Positions 6,799 to 50,745 are shown, counted from the first letter of the stretch. The stretch is DNA of 64,000 nucleotides from a virus (IMGVR_UViG_3300031652_000001); one strand, 5' to 3'. The notes: generated from the letters alone by a model not told the origin. Translations and numbers: made by a program.

Positions 6799-7059
6799 TT
6801 ATCGGACTCTTTTTTTTAGCGCCGTAGCAATGTCAGAAATTTCCTTCATGAAAGAATCAATTTCCCCTTCCGTAGGGGTACGATCCATCTCCTGAAGGAC
6901 CTTAACGACAAACAGATCTCTGGCAGCTGAAATGCCACTTTCGACCTGTTGCGCCACCACATCATTGGCGATTTTTCTGATCACAGCCTTTGTTAATTGC
7001 GTCCTTGTCCGTTTTGGAACACTACTTTTGGTCGTCATCTGACCCTCCTTCAACATCAT
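6799..7059 (-). CDS. hypothetical protein
   Basis: Start revised to MMLKEG (AAGGA RBS). Confidence 0.6.
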   Translation of the reverse strand: MMLKEGQMTTKSSVPKRTRTQLTKAVIRKIANDVVAQQVESGISAARDLFVVKVLQEMDRTPTEGEIDSFMKEISDIATALKKRVR

Positions 7060-7591
7060 CTTTTCTTCCTTTTTCTTGTTTCCTCTGCTCGATGAGGAGA
7101 GCCTTTTCGAGTTCCTGATCAGAAATAAGCTCAAACTCCATGAGGATGGCCAAGCCACGACCATCAACAAAATCACCCAGCCAAGAAGCTTTTACAACAC
7201 CGGCCTTAATCGGAATTTCGACCTCTTCCTCGCCAACCTTCCTGACCAGAGCAGCACGATCCGCCTCTTCAGCAATCGCTTCAGCGTACTTGATCTTCAT
7301 ATCTGACATTTCAGTCTCGAAGGCTTTCCTGTTTTCAGGCTTAACGACAACCTGGACCTGACCCGATGGCGCCACCTGAGCCTCACCATACTTGGCCTGG
7401 ATCCCTCTTCTCTTATCCTCATACTGCAAGAATTCCGGACTCGCCTTGACGGCGAAATCGTAATCATCGATTCTTGCCTTCATTTTTGTCAAAATCCTGG
7501 CTATGTGAATTCTGTGCATCGGGTTTCGTGTACCAGCAAGGTCAACAATTACACCGTTTACCTCTTTGAGCCGATTGTTTTTGATCTTCAA
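7022..7591 (-). CDS. hypothetical helical protein
   Basis: 189 aa, TTG start with GGAGGAG RBS. Confidence 0.75.
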   Translation of the reverse strand: MKIKNNRLKEVNGVIVDLAGTRNPMHRIHIARILTKMKARIDDYDFAVKASPEFLQYEDKRRGIQAKYGEAQVAPSGQVQVVVKPENRKAFETEMSDMKIKYAEAIAEEADRAALVRKVGEEEVEIPIKAGVVKASWLGDFVDGRGLAILMEFELISDQELEKALLIEQRKQEKGRKDDVEGGSDDDQK

Positions 7592-40558: not shown

Positions 40559-41104
40559 TTATTTCTCCACTTTTTTATCAATCACAAATTGACCCTTTGG
40601 ACCTTCAGCTAGCAACCCGTGATAGTGGGTTAGCAACAAATCCCAAACAGCACGTTTTTGAGCTATCGGGATCATATTAGCCTTCTTATATTCACCCGGA
40701 ATCGCCTCCCATCTTCTACCAGGTATATTACGCCATGCCCTATTGGTCTCAGGGCTGTATGGAGTACGAACCACAAGACGTCCATCCATCTCCGTGATAA
40801 AAACCTCGGGTTTTAGCTTGCAGCGCTTCTCAATCCTATCAGCGAGCCTCACAAAACCAAGCTCCCTGAGCCTCATCAACGGTTCAAAGATTTCTACGCC
40901 TTTCTGAATAACGGCTATCTGATAGACAAGCTTGTTTGCTTCCTGACGTAATCCCTCAGGAACGTCAACAGAGCCCAGAAGCCTGGCACGACAATCAGGC
41001 CCCACCCCTGTCTCGACAGAAACAGCGTCCACCAGGGGGCGCCCACAGGCCGCACAGCGTGTTGCTACCATCTTCGCCTGAGGAGAATTCTCATATCCGG
41101 ACAT
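40559..41104 (-). CDS. DUF6011 Zn-finger plus HARP-like domain protein
   Basis: RCAACGRPL....S...GVGPDC; TPYS......RNIPGRRW. Confidence 0.75.
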   Translation of the reverse strand: MSGYENSPQAKMVATRCAACGRPLVDAVSVETGVGPDCRARLLGSVDVPEGLRQEANKLVYQIAVIQKGVEIFEPLMRLRELGFVRLADRIEKRCKLKPEVFITEMDGRLVVRTPYSPETNRAWRNIPGRRWEAIPGEYKKANMIPIAQKRAVWDLLLTHYHGLLAEGPKGQFVIDKKVEK

Positions 41105-41547
41105 TACCGACCACCTTTCTTCATAGTGGAGACGTAGTCAGCAAGGGAATTCAAGAACATCTCGTGTTCTTTCTCCGGAACATCCGCCAAGAGGGAATCG
41201 ACCATTTTTTTGAATTTCTCGACCTGCTTGCTACCAACAGCAAGAACGATACTGTTGAAACCAGTGTTCTCGGTCATGAAATACTCGGGATAGCTTCCAC
41301 CAAAAGCCTTCTTGACCCTCTGAAAACACGTCGGACAAACAGCAAACCAACCAAGGCTGTCATCATTAACCTCAGCCTCAACCTCATCGGTGACGTGAGA
41401 GCCGTATTCAACAATATGGATACGGTGTAATGGAATAGTGGCTTTGCCGCAAAGATGGCACGGTTCTTGACCATCAAGACATCCCTGATTTTCGTTACGG
41501 GTAATGACTTTTTGTGACTTCATCAGTGTTGAGATTTCAATCCGCAT
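41104..41547 (-). CDS. Zn-finger hypothetical protein, first gene after element C
   Basis: PCHLCGK...AVCPTC; AAGGAG RBS. Confidence 0.75.
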   Translation of the reverse strand: MRIEISTLMKSQKVITRNENQGCLDGQEPCHLCGKATIPLHRIHIVEYGSHVTDEVEAEVNDDSLGWFAVCPTCFQRVKKAFGGSYPEYFMTENTGFNSIVLAVGSKQVEKFKKMVDSLLADVPEKEHEMFLNSLADYVSTMKKGGR

Positions 41548-41557
41548 TTTTCATCTC

Positions 41558-41644
41558 CTTCGGACATCTCGTCCGGCATCTACGAACAAACTTACTCATT
41601 CTAAATGCGAAGTCAAGTTCATGTTTTCATGTTTTGGTGTTTTT
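41558..41644 (-). promoter_or_regulatory. promoter plus leader hairpin element, copy C
   Basis: AAAACACCAAAACATG(AAAACATG)AAC-TTGACT-N16-TAAGTT then AGATGC-CGGAC-GAGAT-GTCCG-AAG. Confidence 0.85.
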
Positions 41645-41672
41645 TAGAGAAAAGATAAAAGCCCCACCACAC

Positions 41673-42134
41673 TTACGTTTTTCTTTTCTTTGCCCATCTC
41701 GAAGGTAAGGCCCCACCATCGGACAACCAATCACTGAGGGATAAAATCAGATCGGCGAATTCCACCTCAACACTGGTGTTTACCTCATCACGTCTATTGA
41801 GAACCATATCGGCCAGATTCAACATCCTGCCAAGTTTTTGATTCGGGTTGATCTCCTCCCTCTCTATCGTCGGCTTTCCGACTTTCTTTACAGGAACAGG
41901 TTTTGAATCTGTTGCCTTGGCAACCGGTCTGGGTTCTGGAATAGATTTTGCTATGTTTATAGGCCAAGCATCCTCATTCCCGCATCGACCACCGGCTTTG
42001 CAGAAATCACATTTTTTATTCGGAAGAGAAGGATCTATCGAAGATAGATCACACTTCCCAACCGAAAACAACCGACATTTCATGACGCCATCAATTTTGA
42101 CACAAGCTGTCGTTATGTGTTTTTTCTTTGCCAT
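41673..42134 (-). CDS. Cys-rich hypothetical protein
   Basis: 153 aa, AGGAG RBS. Confidence 0.7.
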   Translation of the reverse strand: MAKKKHITTACVKIDGVMKCRLFSVGKCDLSSIDPSLPNKKCDFCKAGGRCGNEDAWPINIAKSIPEPRPVAKATDSKPVPVKKVGKPTIEREEINPNQKLGRMLNLADMVLNRRDEVNTSVEVEFADLILSLSDWLSDGGALPSRWAKKRKT

Positions 42135-42164
42135 TTTTTACTCCTGACGATTTTTTCTGAAACG

Positions 42165-42494
42165 TTACCTCTTTTTCTTCTTTGACAGGGATTCGAGATG
42201 CGCTTGGGCGATCCTGCCTGCTTCTTCATCACTTTCTGCATCAAAATATTCCTGAGGCATCGTCATGAATTCTTCTTTGGTGAGCGCTCTTTTTTCAGGA
42301 AGCAACTCAACCTTGTCAACCTTGTACCGAGCAATAAAACGATTGCAATCCGGATTGTAACAACGGACTTCCATCGTTGTTTCATCCATCATGATCATTC
42401 TCAAAGGAGCTGTCGGGTGACATCTTCCATGAATATGAGCCGGAAAATCTCCGCACAACTCACAACCTACTGTTTTAGCTTTATTTTTTGCCAT
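42165..42494 (-). CDS. Cys/His-rich hypothetical protein
   Basis: CELC..HGRCH..C....C. Confidence 0.7.
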   Translation of the reverse strand: MAKNKAKTVGCELCGDFPAHIHGRCHPTAPLRMIMMDETTMEVRCYNPDCNRFIARYKVDKVELLPEKRALTKEEFMTMPQEYFDAESDEEAGRIAQAHLESLSKKKKR

Positions 42495-42506
42495 TTTTTT
42501 ACTCCA

Positions 42507-42821
42507 TTACTTGTTTTCTTGAAAACTATCTCGAAGCTCACGCATCCTCTTTCGGACACAACTCCGCTGACACCTGTCCGCTGCACAAGTTGGCGCCGTT
42601 TCGAACGGAAGGCTATCGCAAAGCTGATCTGCAACATACCTAACCTCATCATTGTTCGTCTTGTATGAAATCCAACAACCAGCAATATACTGGTCGAACA
42701 CACATCTTACAGCTGTTTTTGATTCAGACCGACGACCGTATTTATCAACAAAATGAACAGCTTCACTTTTGTCTGAAAAAAGAAAATCAACAAAATTCTG
42801 AATTTTTTGTTCCATGAACAT
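42507..42821 (-). CDS. hypothetical protein, first gene after element D
   Basis: 104 aa. Confidence 0.6.
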   Translation of the reverse strand: MFMEQKIQNFVDFLFSDKSEAVHFVDKYGRRSESKTAVRCVFDQYIAGCWISYKTNNDEVRYVADQLCDSLPFETAPTCAADRCQRSCVRKRMRELRDSFQENK

Positions 42822-42829
42822 ACCTTTTT

Positions 42830-42908
42830 CTTCGGGCTTCTAGCCCGGCATCTGAATAAAAAGGTATCATCTTCGTAGGTGAAGTCAAGTTCATGTTTTG
42901 GTGTTTTT
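42830..42908 (-). promoter_or_regulatory. promoter plus leader hairpin element, copy D
   Basis: AAAACACCAAAACATGAAC-TTGACT-N16-TACCTT then AGATGC-CGGGC-TAGAA-GCCCG-AAG. Confidence 0.85.
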
Positions 42909-42934
42909 GATTTTTTAGGTAAAAACAGGAAAGA

Positions 42935-43969
42935 TCAATCCATCGCAAGCCAGGAATGAGAATCGATACCTGCCTTTGACATTGCTGCCAAAAGTTCCCG
43001 ATAGGACATCTTCTCGATAACCTTTCGGTTCTGAATAACCCATGCCCTAAACTTTTTCACTGCCGTCTTCCAGCCCCTCTGTGGTGGTATTGTTCTGGGC
43101 TCGTTCATTTTGTCGCGCTTGTCCGCTATCAAAAAATCCTTGTACCCGGCTTCAATCCGAACCTGAGGAGTATCAATCACGATCTCCTGGTCACCAGGAG
43201 GAGCGACATCTACACCCCTCAGCTCCCGTTCTTGAATCTTTGGACCAACCCCCTGTGGATTCTTCTTAAACTGATCCACAACGCCCCTGGCCATCGCCAG
43301 GGCCTGCTTATAGGTCTTGGCTCGATGTATCTGACTCGCAAATTGACTAATCAACCTCAAAGTATTTGGATCCTTAATATAATCGAGATCATACAAAGCA
43401 AATTCATTGACATTTTTGCCGCGCTTCCCTGCATTTGTCATGTCAGTAATATGAAAAGAACTTGCAAATCGGTGAACTCTAATGACCGACGTCTCAAGAG
43501 TTTTCCCTATTGGCATCTCTTCTGCAAGAACTTTACTTTCAGCCAAATAATCCCTCTGTCTCAATGACACGCTTTCACGGTATGGTTTAGAACCTGCTTT
43601 ACCAGTAATACTCGGAAGCTTTCCCGTTGAAAGGTAAGTATCGATGGCCTTTACCACAAATTTCATCGGCGAAAAATCAGGTGTAAACGACCGCATCAAA
43701 ACAGCCTTATACAGCTTCAGATCATTCGGATCCTCACTGTTCATCTTGACACCCATCTTCTTCTCAGCATCCTGAGCAGCACCAAGAAGGAGTCCAAGTG
43801 CATTTGGATTATAATATCGTTTCTTTTTGGACCGAATGTCGTACTGGATAATTTTGCTCCCAAGTACCATATCAAATAACTTCGGCGTCGCCTTCTTACC
43901 ACTTGGTAAAGTCACTTCTGAAAGAACCCCAGTAGAAAACCCACCAACATAGCTCCTGTTCCTCAACAT
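42935..43969 (-). CDS. putative internal virion (cargo) polyprotein with two LRxRxY signals
   Basis: MLRNRSY...VLSE and internal LRQRDYLAE..VLAEE; second module paralogous to the N-domain of 43995-45185. Confidence 0.7.
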   Translation of the reverse strand: MLRNRSYVGGFSTGVLSEVTLPSGKKATPKLFDMVLGSKIIQYDIRSKKKRYYNPNALGLLLGAAQDAEKKMGVKMNSEDPNDLKLYKAVLMRSFTPDFSPMKFVVKAIDTYLSTGKLPSITGKAGSKPYRESVSLRQRDYLAESKVLAEEMPIGKTLETSVIRVHRFASSFHITDMTNAGKRGKNVNEFALYDLDYIKDPNTLRLISQFASQIHRAKTYKQALAMARGVVDQFKKNPQGVGPKIQERELRGVDVAPPGDQEIVIDTPQVRIEAGYKDFLIADKRDKMNEPRTIPPQRGWKTAVKKFRAWVIQNRKVIEKMSYRELLAAMSKAGIDSHSWLAMD

Positions 43970-43994
43970 CTCACACTCCTTCCTCAAAGAGACG

Positions 43995-45185
43995 TCAGAG
44001 AGACGTCAGAAGACCAGTCTCTTTCTCAAAAATACTACGAAGTCTGTCGACATAAATATCGTCATACTCCGCTTTCACCTTGTTGCTATATCCCCTTTTC
44101 GCTCCCATCGTAATCCGTCCAAAGGTAACCTTGTAAGTGTCCATTGGTGTCAACTTTATCTTCACATAGTTGATGCCACCTTTGGCCTTCGGAAGCTTAA
44201 ACGAAAGAGAATCCCTATCACCGGCAATATTTTTCGCCCCCGTCATTGCAATAAACCTGTTTCCCCCAAGTTGCCTCATTATTTCCTTCGGAATCGATAA
44301 GTCCGTTTTTGGCTTATCCTCTTTTTCCTTCTTTGGCTTCGGAATGCCCTTGCTCGGAGTGAAGGCCCCAACATCAACCATCGAACTCAAAAAAACTGAA
44401 GCCCTATTCCCAATATCGATAGCGAAATTGGGACCATAATCCTTGGATTTTACCCCCAGCTCCTGCAACACCTGAAAAAGAACTGGATCACTCAAAGCAT
44501 CAGGTTTGTAACCAGATATCTGAAGAGCCTTCAACGCCGTCGGCGCTTTCACTGTACTCCCTGTTATTTTACCTTTGACGACAAGAACATATTCTTTCAT
44601 CTTAGGAAACCTCAGAACATTATCCTTCCTCGGATTAGGAACAGACTTAGGAGTCTTCGTAGAAGGAGCAATACCGGGCACTGTGGCTGATTTCTTCGTT
44701 GGCCTTGCCCCTTCGTTGCCCGCATTATAAGAAGGCTTCACACGCCCTCTGGTTGACGCCTTCAATGTCCCCATGGTCTTCGTCCTGGCCATCTCATTAT
44801 GAGATGACAAATCAGCTCCAGACGGAGGGACATGAACACCTTTCATCGTGATCTCTTCAAGCCATGGAATCTTTCTGTCATGGTTCTGAATAGAAAGCTT
44901 CTCAGCCGATTCCAACGCATCATACCCCACGGACAGGGCCTGTGCATATGTCCTCGCTCGCTTCATCCAGTTAATGGCTTTCTGGATAGGAGTAATCGAT
45001 TTCGACATCTCATCAAAATATATGACGAACCGATTTACCGTTGCTCCTTTTTGACCAGCAGTTCTCAACTCTGTTACTGACACATAGTTGTTTCCTCTAT
45101 GTATACGAAGAACACCGGTATCCAAAATAGCACCGGGTTTCACCGCTTCTGCCAAGTACGCTCGCCTCCTCAATGTCTTCGTCAT
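43995..45185 (-). CDS. putative internal virion multidomain protein
   Basis: Start revised to MTKTLRRRAYLAE (AGGAGG RBS); C-terminal QLGGNRFIAMTGAK...ETGL domain. Confidence 0.75.
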   Translation of the reverse strand: MTKTLRRRAYLAEAVKPGAILDTGVLRIHRGNNYVSVTELRTAGQKGATVNRFVIYFDEMSKSITPIQKAINWMKRARTYAQALSVGYDALESAEKLSIQNHDRKIPWLEEITMKGVHVPPSGADLSSHNEMARTKTMGTLKASTRGRVKPSYNAGNEGARPTKKSATVPGIAPSTKTPKSVPNPRKDNVLRFPKMKEYVLVVKGKITGSTVKAPTALKALQISGYKPDALSDPVLFQVLQELGVKSKDYGPNFAIDIGNRASVFLSSMVDVGAFTPSKGIPKPKKEKEDKPKTDLSIPKEIMRQLGGNRFIAMTGAKNIAGDRDSLSFKLPKAKGGINYVKIKLTPMDTYKVTFGRITMGAKRGYSNKVKAEYDDIYVDRLRSIFEKETGLLTSL

Positions 45186-45195
45186 TGGTAGCCTC

Positions 45196-45344
45196 CTACT
45201 GTACCTTCTTTGCCCTGGCAATTGTCGCCGCCGGTATTGTGTCAAAAACCTTCTGACCCATGAAATTATGACTCACAACATATTCCACTTTGACTACCTT
45301 ACCCTTTGAATAAGTAGTCGTGTAAATGTCTTCAATGGTTTCAT
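45196..45344 (-). pseudogene. small gene with an apparent 1-nt frameshift near the start
   Basis: AGGAG+ATG gives only 16 aa; the -1 frame reads TIEDIYTTTYSKGKVVKVEY...KVQ* up to the next RBS; span is 149 nt. Confidence 0.4.
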
Positions 45345-45353
45345 GTTTTTCTC

Positions 45354-45899
45354 CTATGAAACCGACCTTGCAAAACTCTTTGCGGCCTCTTTTGACTGTT
45401 CCACTGTTTTTATTTTTCTACCCCGGAACTTGTTATCAACCAAATCGGCAGAATCAGGAACTACTTTCCCGACAGGAAAACAACAGTAGGCTCTATGACT
45501 CCAACCACAATATCCCCGCTCTCTATTTGAATATCCTATTGACTTAAATTTGTGAGTAGATTTGGCTTTCAATGGCTTTTCTATTCCAAGCTTGCGATAA
45601 AATTTTTGCCATCTACTTTCTTCTTTCTGCCGTCTTTTTCTGCCCCTACCTTCGCTTAAAACCTCAGCAGACATAAAAAGACCAATGATGGACTCCATCA
45701 TCCCCATGGACCGCAATATGTTATCAGCTGTAACAAATGTCGCTATGGAAGACAGCTTTCTCTCCTGATTACCAACACGGAGAAACCACATCTTCCCTTC
45801 CTTTGACAACGTCGCAATACCGAACTTGGTCTCCTTTCGATATCGAGGCGGTTCCTTCGATGGCCAACTCCTAGATGTTTTCTCCCACTCAGTATTCAT
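45354..45899 (-). CDS. hypothetical two-domain basic protein with VLSE linker
   Basis: C-domain SIGYS...GWSHRA...AKSFARSVS. Confidence 0.7.
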   Translation of the reverse strand: MNTEWEKTSRSWPSKEPPRYRKETKFGIATLSKEGKMWFLRVGNQERKLSSIATFVTADNILRSMGMMESIIGLFMSAEVLSEGRGRKRRQKEESRWQKFYRKLGIEKPLKAKSTHKFKSIGYSNRERGYCGWSHRAYCCFPVGKVVPDSADLVDNKFRGRKIKTVEQSKEAAKSFARSVS

Positions 45900-46150
45900 T
45901 TTCTATCCTTGAAGCAATCGCATTTGAATCGCTTCACAACGACACCTGGCCGTATTAGTTTACCTGGTATTAAGCCCTTGCAGACAGGACACATGTACAT
46001 CCCCTTACCAACATACGAAAACCGTTTCCCGTTCAGGATAATATCCCGTCGTCTTCGAAATATTGAAATCACAACAAGAGAAACAAACAGAAAGAAAAAC
46101 AGAGAACATGCCAAGATACAGATTACATTTCCCAAACCAAACCAATCCAT
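45896..46150 (-). CDS. small membrane-anchored Zn-ribbon protein
   Basis: N-terminal TM, RRRR, CPVC...CDC. Confidence 0.65.
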   Translation of the reverse strand: MDWFGLGNVICILACSLFFFLFVSLVVISIFRRRRDIILNGKRFSYVGKGMYMCPVCKGLIPGKLIRPGVVVKRFKCDCFKDRK

Positions 46151-46168
46151 TTCTTAAAGTGTTTTTCA

Positions 46169-46534
46169 TCAGTACTTCGAAAAATATGATTTGCCTTTGA
46201 ACTTATTTATGAATGCTTTGATCTCTCGAACATCCTCAAGAGCAAGCATATCATTTTCAGACAAACCAGCTTTTTTTGCACTGTCAGAAACAACTTTCAT
46301 TGCAGCTTCAAAAGCAAGAATTCCTCGCCTAAATTTATTTGTAAAGGCCCTCCTAATTTCCATTGAGAATTTCGTCCAAAGAAGACTCTTTTCCGATTCA
46401 TCAATACTGGTATATGATCTCCTCCTTAACGAATTCTCTGTTTTCGAACTACAATTCTTTTCAGTCTTGTTACGGGACCGTTTTCTTTTCTGTTTACGGT
46501 CTCCTTCTTTGATTTTAATCCCGTGCCACTGCAT
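46169..46534 (-). CDS. basic protein with LRRRSY..IDE signal
   Basis: Start revised to MQWHG (GAGGAGG RBS). Confidence 0.65.
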   Translation of the reverse strand: MQWHGIKIKEGDRKQKRKRSRNKTEKNCSSKTENSLRRRSYTSIDESEKSLLWTKFSMEIRRAFTNKFRRGILAFEAAMKVVSDSAKKAGLSENDMLALEDVREIKAFINKFKGKSYFSKY

Positions 46535-46544
46535 AATAACCTCC

Positions 46545-46925
46545 TCAAGACACCGTAAAAACCAGGTCATACTTGTCCAATGGATCTTCTACAGATCCAG
46601 CACCGGCAGCAACAATATTTCCGTACAAGACCTGTTTCTTTCCCTTGTTGTCCGAAAATGGAAATTCAAGCTTCCATGTCTTTTTCTCAGGTTGCCCGCT
46701 TTTGTTCTTCGTATAGAAGTTCTCAGTTGACTTCCAGTTAATACCTTTCTTGTTCATTTCATCGTAAAACCACTTTATAGGTCTCCAATACTGATCTGAA
46801 AAGAACCCGTTGAATCTGGTGCCAACGATCCCGAACAAAACCTTCTTCGCCGCCTGTTTCGTTTTTCCATCAAGCGATGAACCACCTTTTCCCTCGCCAA
46901 GATATGACCTCTTCCTTAAAGTCAC
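46545..46925 (-). CDS. putative internal virion protein with LRKRSYLGE signal
   Basis: GTG start with AGGAGG RBS. Confidence 0.7.
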   Translation of the reverse strand: MTLRKRSYLGEGKGGSSLDGKTKQAAKKVLFGIVGTRFNGFFSDQYWRPIKWFYDEMNKKGINWKSTENFYTKNKSGQPEKKTWKLEFPFSDNKGKKQVLYGNIVAAGAGSVEDPLDKYDLVFTVS

Positions 46926-46934
46926 AGCGTCCTC

Positions 46935-47423
46935 CTATTCGTTGTCAATGGCTGCCCATATGCTTCCGGCAGCAACAGTACCAGCAACACCAAGGACAAC
47001 TCCTGTAATTATACCAATACTAAGTTTATGCGTTTGCCACCATGAATCCCTGATTTTCTGTAGAGCCTCTTCCTTCTGATCTATTGTCTTGTCGGCACTC
47101 ATCAGCTCCCGCTCCTGGATCTGGATGATGGTAAGCAGAGCTTTCTTGTTGCTCAGTGCCAACTGGTAGACCTCGTCATAGGAGATCCGAAGCTCGACAG
47201 CTGCACCAGCTTTGGTCTCATCCAGAAGTACCCCATTAAACGGTGCTGGATCACCCTCTGACAAACCAGCTGCATCTCCTGAGCTTGGAGCCAAGTATTC
47301 TGGCATCACTGATACCTCCTCAGCTTTCTCGGTAATAGGGAGCCGTTCAGGAGTGCTTGGAGGAGGGGTGTTCTTTGTACATCCAATAACGAACAATGAA
47401 AAAATCAAAATAAAACGCAACAT
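46935..47423 (-). CDS. lipoprotein with C-terminal TM (unimolecular spanin-like)
   Basis: Lipobox VIG-C at residue 15, Pro-rich linker, coiled coil, C-terminal GIITGVVLGVAG TM. Confidence 0.65.
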   Translation of the reverse strand: MLRFILIFSLFVIGCTKNTPPPSTPERLPITEKAEEVSVMPEYLAPSSGDAAGLSEGDPAPFNGVLLDETKAGAAVELRISYDEVYQLALSNKKALLTIIQIQERELMSADKTIDQKEEALQKIRDSWWQTHKLSIGIITGVVLGVAGTVAAGSIWAAIDNE

Positions 47424-47431
47424 CTCTCACC

Positions 47432-47833
47432 TTAAATATCCACCTTTGTTATTGTATATCCAACATGGAAACAACTTGGTGGAATAGCCTGCTTCCTGCC
47501 GATGGATGATGTCTCGACCACTAAATCAAACCAGTAATCACCCTCTGACCAACCATTTGTATCATCCGGAACAAAATACACTTCAAGGTCACCATTCGTG
47601 GCATCCGTAATCAAAATCTCAGTGTCACCTCCACCGGCAGCCGTATTCCGTTTCAAGATGAGAGCATCAGCATCTGAGTCTGACGTCTCATCTTTCACCG
47701 ATAGCCAAAGGAGAGCACCTGTTAGATCGAGTGGTGTTGAAGGCACTGGAACATCTATCGTCAATGTAATTTTGGCCGTGTAATCCCTGCCAGGAAAAAC
47801 CGAAATACCACTAGAGCATGCGCAATCAACCAT
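47432..47833 (-). CDS. BppU/Ig-like virion accessory protein
   Basis: PLDLTGA.LW..VK...ITDATNG.LEVYF.PDDT...G.Y.FDL. Confidence 0.6.
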   Translation of the reverse strand: MVDCACSSGISVFPGRDYTAKITLTIDVPVPSTPLDLTGALLWLSVKDETSDSDADALILKRNTAAGGGDTEILITDATNGDLEVYFVPDDTNGWSEGDYWFDLVVETSSIGRKQAIPPSCFHVGYTITKVDI

Positions 47834-47834
47834 T

Positions 47835-48017
47835 TTAATCCTCCTCGACCTCGCTGCTTATCGTAGTGGCACTGACTTCAGAAAAAAGATTCTCAATGAC
47901 TTCTATCGCAGCAGATATGTTTCCAGAAGAATTCTCAATAACAGCAGAAACAGGTTCAGAAACAGATACAGCAGCAGCCACATTAATACCATCTTCTATA
48001 TTGACAGTTATGTCCAT
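47835..48017 (-). CDS. small acidic beta-rich protein
   Basis: 60 aa, tiles with neighbours. Confidence 0.55.
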   Translation of the reverse strand: MDITVNIEDGINVAAAVSVSEPVSAVIENSSGNISAAIEVIENLFSEVSATTISSEVEED

Positions 48018-48024
48018 AAACTAC

Positions 48025-48639
48025 TCACTTCTTATCCCGTCTCTTGTTCCGAGTAACAGGTTTGGAATTACTCTTCATCTGGGTGTCTATCGACTGAAGA
48101 TTAAAAAGAATATGTCGGTATCGTTTATCCCCAGTCTCATTATTTTTTTCAATAGTGTTTTTAAGACTTTTACTGTCCTCCTGTAAGGTAACAACATCTT
48201 GCTTCATATCAATCACCTGGCTCTTGGTGACCACCGTCTCGGTCTTGATGTTGAATATGAAAGCTGCACCGGTGAATAATGCCAAAATGACAGAAATTAT
48301 GGCACCTATTTTCAACCCTCTGTTTCCGTAAAGCACTTTCCTGATGTCCCTGACATCATCCGTTATTGACGCAATACTGTCCCGCTGGGAACAGATGTGT
48401 GGTGAATTAGCCATCCTAATTGCCTCCTCTGCTTTCGATATCGCTTCTTTTGCCCTTATGGAAATCCGTTGCGTACCTTCATTGATTGTACGCTTCTCGA
48501 CATCAGCAATCTTTATATTGTTGTCTATTGCGGCCTGCATTCGCCTTTCAAGCTCCTTAATCTCCCTTCTGATTTCCTCCTCGAACATTGATTTGAGTTC
48601 ATCAATTAGCTCCCTCTTCTCTGACCGAGTCATTACCAT
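48025..48639 (-). CDS. coiled-coil membrane protein
   Basis: Central TM IGAIISVILALFTGAAFIF flanked by coiled coils. Confidence 0.7.
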   Translation of the reverse strand: MVMTRSEKRELIDELKSMFEEEIRREIKELERRMQAAIDNNIKIADVEKRTINEGTQRISIRAKEAISKAEEAIRMANSPHICSQRDSIASITDDVRDIRKVLYGNRGLKIGAIISVILALFTGAAFIFNIKTETVVTKSQVIDMKQDVVTLQEDSKSLKNTIEKNNETGDKRYRHILFNLQSIDTQMKSNSKPVTRNKRRDKK

Positions 48640-48686
48640 TTCCGCCTACTTTTTCCCCCATGTCCCCTCCTTAATAGGGCCGATCA

Positions 48687-49064
48687 TCAATCCTTTGTGA
48701 TCGGCCCAGATCCTTCAGCCTTTGTCGTCACCACACCTGTTTTTGTATTATACGATGTCGATGGGTCATTAAAATTGACACCATATCGCTCAGAAAACTC
48801 TGCAAGCAAAGCCCTTTTACTTTCATTTATTCCAAGTAGTTTTTTCTCAATCAAAGCAATATCTGATTGAAGCTTTTGCAAAGACAGGGTGGTCTGAGCC
48901 TCGATACGCTCAGAATCAACCCGCTTTGCCTTTATCCCCTCAACAAGCCTTGCCATCTTCTCATTCATAAGCTCAATCCTGAGCTTGTCTGTTTCTGACA
49001 AAGTGGTGGGGGTAGAAACAACTTTACACGTTACATCTTCATTTTTCGTTTCATCGCTGTTCAT
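48687..49064 (-). CDS. coiled-coil hypothetical protein
   Basis: 125 aa. Confidence 0.7.
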   Translation of the reverse strand: MNSDETKNEDVTCKVVSTPTTLSETDKLRIELMNEKMARLVEGIKAKRVDSERIEAQTTLSLQKLQSDIALIEKKLLGINESKRALLAEFSERYGVNFNDPSTSYNTKTGVVTTKAEGSGPITKD

Positions 49065-49187
49065 ATCAAGATCCTTTCCAAGCCAATCGGCCTTTGAAAC
49101 AACTTTAACCTATCTATCATTTGGAGTTCAAACTTCCACCACTATTGTCAAACAAATAAGTGGTTTTATTAGAATTGAAAGGATATC

Positions 49188-49520
49188 TTACAGATTGTTT
49201 TTCAAAAGACTGGCAAGCTTTTTCCGTCTGGTAACCCCATCGGGTTCTTTCCGGATCTCCTCAAGCTCTTTCTTCTTCGCCGTAGATTTCTCCTTAATGA
49301 TTGCCTGCTCAACCTTGACATCCGTGAGCGCCTCAATGGCTCGCTGCTTTGCAACTTGGACGTAAGAGACAGACTTCTTGGAAGCGGTATCCTCAATAGC
49401 TTCCTGCTCCTTCTCATCACGCTTTATGAAGCCAACAACAGTTACCGCACCAAGAACAAGCAAGATCAACCACCAAAACATCTTGAGTACATTCCATATC
49501 CAAAGCCCTACCGATTTCAT
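49188..49520 (-). CDS. N-anchored coiled-coil membrane protein (i-spanin-like)
   Basis: N-terminal TM followed by charged helix; directly after the holin-like gene. Confidence 0.55.
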   Translation of the reverse strand: MKSVGLWIWNVLKMFWWLILLVLGAVTVVGFIKRDEKEQEAIEDTASKKSVSYVQVAKQRAIEALTDVKVEQAIIKEKSTAKKKELEEIRKEPDGVTRRKKLASLLKNNL

Positions 49521-49532
49521 CTTTTTCTCCAA

Positions 49533-49886
49533 TCAGTTCTCATCCGATATGTTTGCTTTCGCAGCATTTCTCGAAGCCTTACTCCCCATCAACATCTTGA
49601 TCCGATCACCAAACATCTGTCTGACAATCCCATACGTTGTCGCCGAAAGAGAACCAGCCACAAGTCCAATAATGGCATTTTGAGCCGTCTCCTTCATCGG
49701 TGACAGCTGAGGAATCATCGCCAGACCAACACCGAGAAATACCGGCAATATCCTCAAAATGGCTTTCCACAACTTCGTGTTCTCAATTTTATCGGGAAGA
49801 ATCTGGCGTATCACCCAGATTATTGTCCCAACACCCAACAAAATTAGGACGGTGTTTTGATTAATAATTGCATCTACAACACTCAT
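49533..49886 (-). CDS. putative holin
   Basis: 117 aa, three hydrophobic segments, basic C-terminus. Confidence 0.65.
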   Translation of the reverse strand: MSVVDAIINQNTVLILLGVGTIIWVIRQILPDKIENTKLWKAILRILPVFLGVGLAMIPQLSPMKETAQNAIIGLVAGSLSATTYGIVRQMFGDRIKMLMGSKASRNAAKANISDEN

Positions 49887-50065
49887 GAGTCATCTCCTTC
49901 TACTTCCTTAGCAAACTCATCAAGGAGCTTGGTAAGCTTATCAGCCAATACCTTAGAGGCTGACATTCCTCTTTTGGCTGCAATCTTAGTCAACAATATG
50001 AACAATTTCCTTGGAACAGCCATAGGAACGATCACATAGTTGGCCTGGTCCTTTTCGCTTATCAT
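49883..50065 (-). CDS. ribbon-helix-helix-like small DNA-binding protein
   Basis: V...VPRKL...L..IAAKRGMSAS..L. Confidence 0.6.
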   Translation of the reverse strand: MISEKDQANYVIVPMAVPRKLFILLTKIAAKRGMSASKVLADKLTKLLDEFAKEVEGDDS

Positions 50066-50745
50066 TTTCTCGTATATCTATCGGCCATACTCCGAAAGTC
50101 TTTTGCACTATACGGATATATGCCGCCACCTATTTGCATGGTCTCAGAAAATGACAATGGTAGATTAGCGTACCTCGTGTTCCCAGTCTGAAACCAATTC
50201 ATCCGGCTCACAGCAACCTCATCAAGATGGACGTAAATGCCGTTTCCACCACTCTCAAAACCATACTGAGATTGACCAAACGTCTCACCAGCAGCCCAGT
50301 TGACACCAAGGGATACCTTTGGTGCAAACAACCACAAGACAGGTGGAGCAACCGAAACAACACTATCACCTATGGTGCTATAAGAAAGAGTCCCAAGCAT
50401 TCTCAACCAAGCTATGGCGCCCTCAATGTCAACGTTGAACTTATCTTCATCAACATCCTTGCCTATCTCACCATCTATATCTCTAGAAAAAGTTACCGAA
50501 AAACTGATCGTGTGATCACCTCCGCTTGTCCACTGTTTCAACGGTAATGGAGATCCAGGTATTTCTATGCTTTGCCAATTAGAAGACTGACTCGTATCAA
50601 TCGTCTCAGGCCAATACTGAAGAGTTTTCTTTCCACCATATGCTTGGTTTTCTTTACCATTACTATCAAGCGGCATTATCACAAATTCAGCCGGTTTTTG
50701 ATACGTAATAAACGGACCTTCCATGCCCGAAAACGGACCAGCCAT
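50062..50745 (-). CDS. contractile-tail tube-initiator/baseplate-hub-like protein
   Basis: QYWPETI......NW..IEIPG..LP..QW.SG...TISF. Confidence 0.65.
   Translation of the reverse strand: MAGPFSGMEGPFITYQKPAEFVIMPLDSNGKENQAYGGKKTLQYWPETIDTSQSSNWQSIEIPGSPLPLKQWTSGGDHTISFSVTFSRDIDGEIGKDVDEDKFNVDIEGAIAWLRMLGTLSYSTIGDSVVSVAPPVLWLFAPKVSLGVNWAAGETFGQSQYGFESGGNGIYVHLDEVAVSRMNWFQTGNTRYANLPLSFSETMQIGGGIYPYSAKDFRSMADRYTRK

Follow-up and report, generated by a model that had tools for sequence, protein, structure and literature searches.

A portable leader peptide on neighbouring proteins of an uncultured salt-marsh phage: a candidate T4-type capsid-targeting tag

A 64,000-nucleotide stretch of DNA from an uncultured salt-marsh phage (IMGVR_UViG_3300031652_000001; the whole stretch is termed the window) carries a cluster of six genes at 42935-46925 in which a short peptide tag, with the consensus [ST]-L-R-x-R-x-Y-(0-9 residues)-[LI]-x-E, recurs five times in four of the encoded proteins (A, B, D, and E). 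The tag is real and non-random, and it is portable, cargo-independent, and lineage-specific. It is read here, with moderate confidence and by sequence and analogy, as a lineage-specific and diverged version of the T4-type capsid-targeting and processing tag on cargo that would be injected, modular, and partly fused. An earlier note on this DNA had proposed a new targeting signal; that novelty was overstated, since the leader is one of a continuum of leaders resembling the T4 capsid-targeting sequence (CTS) that are carried by many uncultured phages.

A recurrent leader in a cluster of basic proteins

All five motif copies were located on the minus strand where the earlier note had reported them. 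A search for LR.R.Y in the six frames of the window returned seven matches, five of them in real open reading frames (ORFs), all within 42935-46925, and the other two in non-coding frames. The composition-based expectation was 0.017 matches in the six cluster genes and 0.19 in the 20,773-amino-acid (aa) window proteome, such that the regular expression search proposed earlier placed the motif far above background (five versus 0.19 expected). None of 2000 per-protein shuffles gave five matches, with a maximum of three. In addition, [LI]-x-E followed within 12 residues in all five copies, for which a background of 0.14 per site (15-residue window) gives a probability of about 5e-5 for all five. 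The LRxRxY pattern was defined post hoc, but the margin is nonetheless large. The genes and tags are as follows:

46545-46925, minus strand: gene A, 126 aa, isoelectric point (pI) 9.75; GTG start with AGGAGG six bases upstream
46893-46922, minus strand: leader of A, residues 2-11, TLRKRSYLGE, ahead of a family A body with the conserved C-terminus GAGSV-x-DPL-x-x-YD
46169-46534, minus strand: gene B, 121 aa, pI 10.2; very basic 34-residue N-terminal stretch, internal leader, and helical 75-residue body
46397-46432, minus strand: internal leader of B, residues 35-46, SLRRRSYTSIDE
45896-46150, minus strand: gene C', 84 aa, without leader, overlapping the start of C by 4 nucleotides (nt)
45354-45899, minus strand: gene C, 181 aa; N-terminal part, leader-like segment, and Tad6-like domain
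45651-45707, minus strand: leader-like segment of a second class in C, residues 65-83, ending VLSE
45357-45608, minus strand: Tad6-like domain of C, residues 98-181
43995-45185, minus strand: gene D, 396 aa, comprising leader, the initial ~110 residues of family X (residues 14-123), basic linker, middle domain, and phrog_9437
45147-45176, minus strand: leader of D, residues 4-13, TLRRRAYLAE
43998-44294, minus strand: phrog_9437 C-terminus of D, residues 298-396
42935-43969, minus strand: gene E, 344 aa; residues 150-344 form a full family X body
43916-43966, minus strand: N-terminal leader of E with a long spacer, residues 2-18, LRNRSY...VLSE, followed by a lineage-specific domain
43517-43567, minus strand: internal leader of E, residues 135-151, SLRQRDYLAE...LAEE

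The six cluster proteins were confirmed as basic (pI 9.75-10.2 compared to a window median of 8.2), and A, D, and E have ribosome-binding-site-supported starts with good Shine-Dalgarno sequences and a tag no more than five residues away. AEVLSE, noted earlier between the domains of gene C, was found at residues 78-83. The description of the motif as an N-terminal leader holds for three of the five copies and fails for the copy in B and the internal copy in E. The leaderless C' has one predicted membrane helix and a Cys-x-x-Cys ... Cys-x-Cys motif.

The tag as a portable protein module

Homologous sequence follows the tag only in D and at the internal copy of E, which are paralogues (30% identity over 129 residues beginning exactly at the leader, E-value 1e-14). 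Body A, body B, and the domain at the N-terminus of E are related neither to one another nor to the domain shared by D and E, and the tag heads four unrelated bodies. In a DNA alignment, the five sites are conserved only at the bases specifying L, R, R, and Y, other codon positions vary (TTA/TTG, AGG/AGA/CGA, and TAT/TAC), and the flanks are not conserved. Because the codons vary and the flanks diverge, the constraint acts on the protein and not on the DNA, and the same alignment disfavors a repeated DNA element, a translational operator, and an internal ribosome-binding site. For the last of these, the purine-rich L-R-x-R codons were considered as a candidate and rejected, as they vary and no consistent in-frame start follows them. 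A twin-arginine (Tat) signal was also rejected, as the motif is followed by polar or charged residues (such as a stretch rich in Gly/Lys/Ser in A and others rich in Glu/Lys in E) with no hydrophobic stretch, and two copies are internal.

In relatives 83-92% identical, L, R, R, and Y are retained, while the x positions and the flanks have changed. A relative of B (P0214, 83% identical) retains the leader save for the x of I-x-E and has seven substitutions in the preceding 33 residues. In AF2 models, pLDDT was <50 at residues 1-14 of A, ahead of a folded alpha/beta domain at residues 20-126, and <50 at residues 121-142 of E, compared to >85 at residues 150-344; the tag of A and the internal tag of E are thus probably in disordered segments preceding folded domains, according to the models. 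A protein 71% identical to A (P0042) has a ~90-residue domain inserted behind the tag, with L-R-x-R-x-Y-L-x-E at the new N-terminus and I-V-E plus a Gly/Ser linker at the junction with body A. This single case is the arrangement expected if targeting and cleavage were separate functions.

Leader swapping across phage lineages

Body X (the last 195 residues of E) has 39 homologues in a family made up largely of stand-alone proteins 190-230 residues long, and LRxRxY was present in none of the 38 more distant members. Family A contains 671 metagenome clusters at 50% identity and frequently forms the C-terminal domain of a longer protein (120-600 residues); a tblastn search with three of its members gave no match in 50,697 GenBank phage records. 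Family A members 50-92% identical to A keep LRxRxY (P0040, P0041, P0042, and P0044; P0113 likewise) and more distant members bear other N-terminal peptides. A third family, G-K-F-K-N-K-R, was found with two different leaders. Families A and X have at least three leader classes in common, including:

R-V-A-x-R-[YHF]
I-A-+-E-L-V-+-I-A-+, an amphipathic helix
L-A-x3-P-E-L-R-x-H-L-V-P-L-L

Sharing of N-terminal 10-mers between pairs of ORFs was compared in 49 IMG/VR loci holding family A and amounted to 2.3% within a locus versus 0.35% between loci (6.7-fold). At least three ORFs had a common leader in 24 of the 49 loci, and the bodies were unrelated in 292 of the 299 leader-sharing pairs. Because of this comparison, a lineage-specific and cargo-independent N-terminal peptide is considered a general feature of these phages, and the window tag is one version of it. 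The swapping of tags on cargo families shared between lineages is the most interesting aspect of the system, and full-text literature searching found no description of such cross-lineage leader swapping on shared cargo families.

Several individual loci illustrate the range of leaders. A 139.6-kb IMG/VR record (L002, 163-11626) has ~17 consecutive small ORFs that begin with one amphipathic leader of the I-A-R-E-L-V-A-V-A-K-D-L type and have unrelated bodies, and similar arrays with other leaders were observed in L004, L009, L019, L022, and L035-L037. In a complete record of 461 kb (L012:9920-10750), a family A protein and its neighbor begin M-[SN]-W-Y-K-Q-S-Q (the MNWYK/MSWYK class), and no PF03420 match was present in that record.

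A tagged phage with a gp21-type protease

The family A record G003 (161.6 kb) encodes a Peptidase_S77 protease (gp21, PF03420; 96.9 bits) within head genes in the T4-like order of portal, protease, scaffold, and major head protein. Its leader, [RK]-[FL]-K-x-[YF]-[LI]-x-E, begins 27 of 260 ORFs and was absent from residues 17-32. The tagged ORFs have a median pI of 9.33 compared to 6.77 for the untagged ORFs, and one of them lies between the protease and scaffold genes. In the T4 record, IPII and IPIII start with MKTYQEFIAE, while IPI starts with MKTFKEF, followed by a longer spacer that ends in ITE. The G003 leader corresponds to the T4 CTS pattern shifted by one residue and includes the variant MKTFEKYLNE; in sequence terms, it bridges the window leader and T4 MKTYQEFIAE. 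The Tyr before L-x-E in the window matches F7 of T4, and G003 F-K-x-Y-L-x-E has the T4 spacing with two aromatics three apart. PF03420 was detected in G003, G005, G006, and G012, and all four of these records have leaders rich in hydrophobic-x-E.

Further observations concern the G003 head module and its tagged proteins. The small gene between protease and scaffold (L059:6140-6604) belongs to phrog_37844, a family that in L002:8976-9875 is represented by a leader-bearing 299-aa protein, thereby tying a leader-tagged family to a head-module position. The major head protein and protease (covered by L059:3601-4824 and 6877-7500) show related features, the former having a leader-like peptide ending V-L-N-E-G and the latter beginning with L-I-T-E and L-V-E motifs, and an L-I-E likewise lies close to the N-terminus of T4 gp21. 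A 478-aa CCA-adding tRNA nucleotidyltransferase with PolyA_pol head, RNA-binding, and HD domains (L061:1491-2927, corresponding to G003 141491-142927) carries the leader M-R-F-K-R-Y-L-A-E. Either this enzyme is an unexpected packaged protein or the tag may serve more than the capsid.

Genomic setting and expression of the cluster

The phage lies on a contig of 162,093 bp, and a relative with 92% identity on one of 162,213 bp. The cluster DNA had no similarity to GenBank phages, the window recombinase was only ~30% identical to its GenBank phage counterparts, an IMG/VR search with proteins E and A plus the baseplate wedge identified no close relatives, and one metagenome scan yielded no more than a 2.2-kb fragment. 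The minus strand holds all long ORFs of the window and the GC skew is strong. From high to low coordinates, the order is baseplate/fiber genes (including a T4 gp6-type wedge, phrog_219), lysis block, tag cluster, small zinc-ribbon genes, and replication genes (DnaB-like helicase, RecA/UvsX-like recombinase, and initiator). The features surrounding the cluster are:

49188-49886: two small membrane proteins of the lysis block, as read from the sequence
46935-47423, minus strand: putative u-spanin-like lysis gene with a lipobox V-I-G-C and a C-terminal membrane helix
45186-45353, minus strand: 168-nt gap before D, with the partial early-cassette upstream element AAAACATGAA, then TTGAAG, and no hairpin
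42822-42934, minus strand: early-type promoter-plus-hairpin cassette right after the E stop, at the downstream edge of the cluster

The earlier placement of the cluster between the end of the late operon and the early promoters was borne out, with the lysis gene upstream and the early cassette immediately after E. Genes A-B-C'-C are packed directly behind the lysis gene and upstream of the first early promoter: the ribosome-binding site of A overlaps the stop codon of the spanin-like gene and the spacing is 10 nt for A-B and 18 nt for B-C'. From this sequence context, A-C are probably expressed late. The cassette at 42822-42934 shares an overlapping run of 8-mers, including the -35 TTGACT and the hairpin start, with the gap at 41548-41672, and the gap at 45186-45353, whose element resembles a degenerate version of the upstream and -35 portions of these cassettes, is possibly a weak promoter for D-E. 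Sigma-70 promoter and terminator scans of the window were uninformative. The u-spanin-like gene had no family match in Pfam or PHROGs, and a DUF6011 zinc-ribbon protein (40559-41104, E-value 1.1e-12), located among small Cys-rich early genes downstream of the cluster, was the single Pfam match in the ten genes flanking it.

Candidate cargo functions

NCBIfam gave no match to the cluster proteins. Residues 98-181 of gene C matched Pfam PF25188 Tad6 with 52.8 bits (cut-off 27; E-value 5.8e-14) over profile positions 47-145 of 145, leaving the first 46 positions (the N-terminal third) unmatched. Tad6 is a type I Thoeris inhibitor reported to bind ThsB (summarized in PMC13728456). The domain in C differs in being fused behind ~97 residues that include the leader-like segment, and by its sequence it suggests a counter-defense role.

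The phrog_9437 domain of D also occurs on its own, as a protein of ~100 aa, in 57 phage records of GenBank, with KVP40, nt-1, and phiM12 among them. A family X homologue (P0036) is fused behind a 2'-5' RNA ligase/2H phosphoesterase domain (PF02834 and PF13563); the 2H phosphoesterase fold is known from phage enzymes that degrade cyclic nucleotides. Fold searches with E in PDB by Foldseek, BFVD, and wide VIA yielded nothing significant (best Z 5.1 across 64 residues), and an ESM Atlas search with the X domain gave no usable match. The search with A produced only weak NTF2-like rows (E-value 0.02 or worse), and the modeled fold of family A is weakly NTF2-like at best.

Capsid targeting and alternative explanations

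If the tag acts as a T4-type signal, the basic proteins A, B, D, and E would dock by means of it on the prohead scaffolding core late in infection, and C may dock too via its second tag class. A glutamate-specific prohead protease of the gp21 family would then cut after [LI]-x-E, removing the N-terminal tags and splitting the fused B and E at the internal ones. The mature basic proteins would remain with the packaged DNA, enter the next cell with it, and act before phage gene expression, where the Tad6-like domain of C hints at counter-defense. Such cargo would be a natural expectation because the T-even internal proteins are anti-restriction proteins. The targeting interpretation of the earlier note accordingly stands with respect to the portable tag, its gp21-type end, and the Tad6 domain nearby; docking, cleavage, packaging, ejection, and cargo function we infer.

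Several observations weigh against this interpretation. Two of the five tags are internal and the N-terminus of B is without a tag; the upstream aromatic of the T4 CTS is replaced in the window by a Leu five residues from the Tyr. A partial early-promoter element lies upstream of D, and the T4-type late promoter TATAAATA was not enriched in the window (four occurrences versus 1.7 expected) with none near the cluster. The head genes of the phage are positioned outside the 64-kb window, and G003 was rejected as a relative of the window phage, the two having family A alone in common, so that its protease and head module serve as an analogy only. The G003 tag is present on ~10% of ORFs, including the CCA-adding enzyme, which is many cargoes for a capsid. 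Lastly, PF03420 was detected in 4 of 15 family A records and was not found in two complete records of huge phages whose leaders belong to other classes.

The strongest alternative, which we regard as rather unlikely, is that the tag serves as an address for, or is recognized by, some partner that is not the prohead, such as a modifying enzyme acting on Arg/Tyr, a chaperone, or another structure, and that [LI]-x-E is incidental to an amphipathic peptide. The breadth of the 27 tagged ORFs in G003 with the CCA-adding enzyme among them, the acidic bodies headed by the MKIIKT... leader class, and the complete huge-phage records lacking PF03420 would all fit a non-prohead partner. However, scans of 18 ORFs at 40559-50745 against Pfam, PHROGs, and NCBIfam turned up no modifying enzyme, [LI]-x-E is present in five of five copies and again at the domain junction of P0042, and the closest leader class co-occurs with a gp21-type protease and is also found inside a head-gene block.

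It is improbable that the motif is a mere processing linker, with fused precursors cut in the cytoplasm to yield separate early effectors and no packaging. In agreement with such a linker, B and E carry internal copies where their domains meet, a similar VLSE precedes the Tad6-like domain in C, and a partial early-promoter element lies ahead of D-E, whereas cutting at the three extreme N-terminal copies would free only a 10-18-residue peptide. The L-R-x-R-x-Y half would also be superfluous, as a T4-type cut is directed by L/I-x-E alone, and in P0042 LRxRxY has shifted to the new N-terminus, with the cut site left behind at the junction.

Nucleic-acid binding, in which an Arg-rich peptide would recognize the early-cassette hairpins or phage DNA much as lambdoid N proteins use their arginine-rich motifs, is very improbable. 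The two or three Arg in a short peptide and the hairpin-bearing early cassettes starting directly downstream are consistent with it, but only two Arg are conserved and known arginine-rich motifs hold far more. In addition, disorder is predicted for the tags and an acidic cut-site motif comes after them, and the same cargo families in other phages bear non-basic helical leaders. That the motif is a functionless relic of common ancestry or a chance likeness is scarcely credible. D and the internal copy in E are true paralogues with homology from the motif onward, which favors it, but the other three bodies are unrelated, the expected count in the cluster is 0.017, and the motif is kept while its flanks diverge and is replaced by other leaders in homologues.

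Implications for uncultured phages

A broader proposal, possible but doubtful at this stage, extends capsid targeting beyond the window: many uncultured large phages may load 5-10% of their proteome into the capsid via lineage-coded tags that co-evolve with scaffold and protease, while cargo modules (A, X, GKFKNKR, and phrog_37844), with cargo including Tad6-like inhibitors and RNA-repair enzymes such as a CCA-adding enzyme, swap tags between lineages. If true, the injected proteome of an uncultured phage would be readable from its genome, with LRxRxY-[LI]xE as one dialect. If the capsid-targeting reading of the window tag itself holds, the T4 CTS, described for only a few proteins of T-even phages, would be widened to a general rule that can be read from sequence in uncultured phages. 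Candidate injected counter-defense proteins could then be listed directly, including a ready-made Tad6-like Thoeris inhibitor, and new packaging tags would be available for loading foreign proteins into phage heads. Tag swapping would likewise constitute a natural experiment on the evolution of the targeting and cleavage halves. The large uncharacterized cargo families A and X would become priorities for functional tests.

Comparison with known systems

Mullaney and Black reportedly described in 1996 the CTS carried by T4's internal proteins as well as its removal by the gp21 prohead protease. Residues 4 and 7 of the T4 CTS act in targeting and residues 8 and 10 in processing, with gp21 cutting after L/I-x-E (PMC9026906). 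The window tag resembles it as a putative 10-19-residue propeptide on otherwise unrelated basic proteins, with an aromatic directly before [LI]-x-E (F-I-A-E in T4 and Y-L-A-E in the window) at positions that are experimentally important in T4. Each system has one long-spacer member, IPI in T4 and the N-terminus of E ending V-L-S-E in the window. In both, the genes adjoin a lysis gene (T4 ipII/ipIII lie beside gene e), and counter-defense proteins occur among the cargo, for which the candidate in the window is the Tad6-like domain. Differences include the targeting half, where L-R-x-R-x replaces K-T-Y-Q-E, and the internal copies in fused multi-domain proteins, which T4 internal proteins do not have. 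The window cargo, known here from genes alone, is also larger (up to 396 aa) and modular, and the window phage had no close similarity to GenBank phages in the searches run.

The T-even internal proteins are diverse anti-restriction proteins sharing only the CTS (PMC3012670; PMC12373910), and their hypervariable ip loci hold different ORFs with the CTS alone in common (Repoila et al., 1994, as cited in PMC12373910). The window cluster is similar in holding unrelated genes in tandem that have one leader in common and lie where the genome is plastic, whereas its cargo families are found again across many uncultured lineages, and the leader class differs from lineage to lineage. In phiKZ, 201phi2-1, and SPN3US, the propeptides of inner-body and ejection proteins are cut after S/A/G-x-E by gp175/gp245 (PMC5694885; PMC9026906). 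By analogy, the window phage would have in common with these phages a prohead protease specific for glutamate, a large number of packaged proteins, multiple cut sites, and paralogous cargo, but the propeptides of those phages are mostly >100 residues without a short shared consensus, in contrast to the strongly conserved window tag of ~10 residues.

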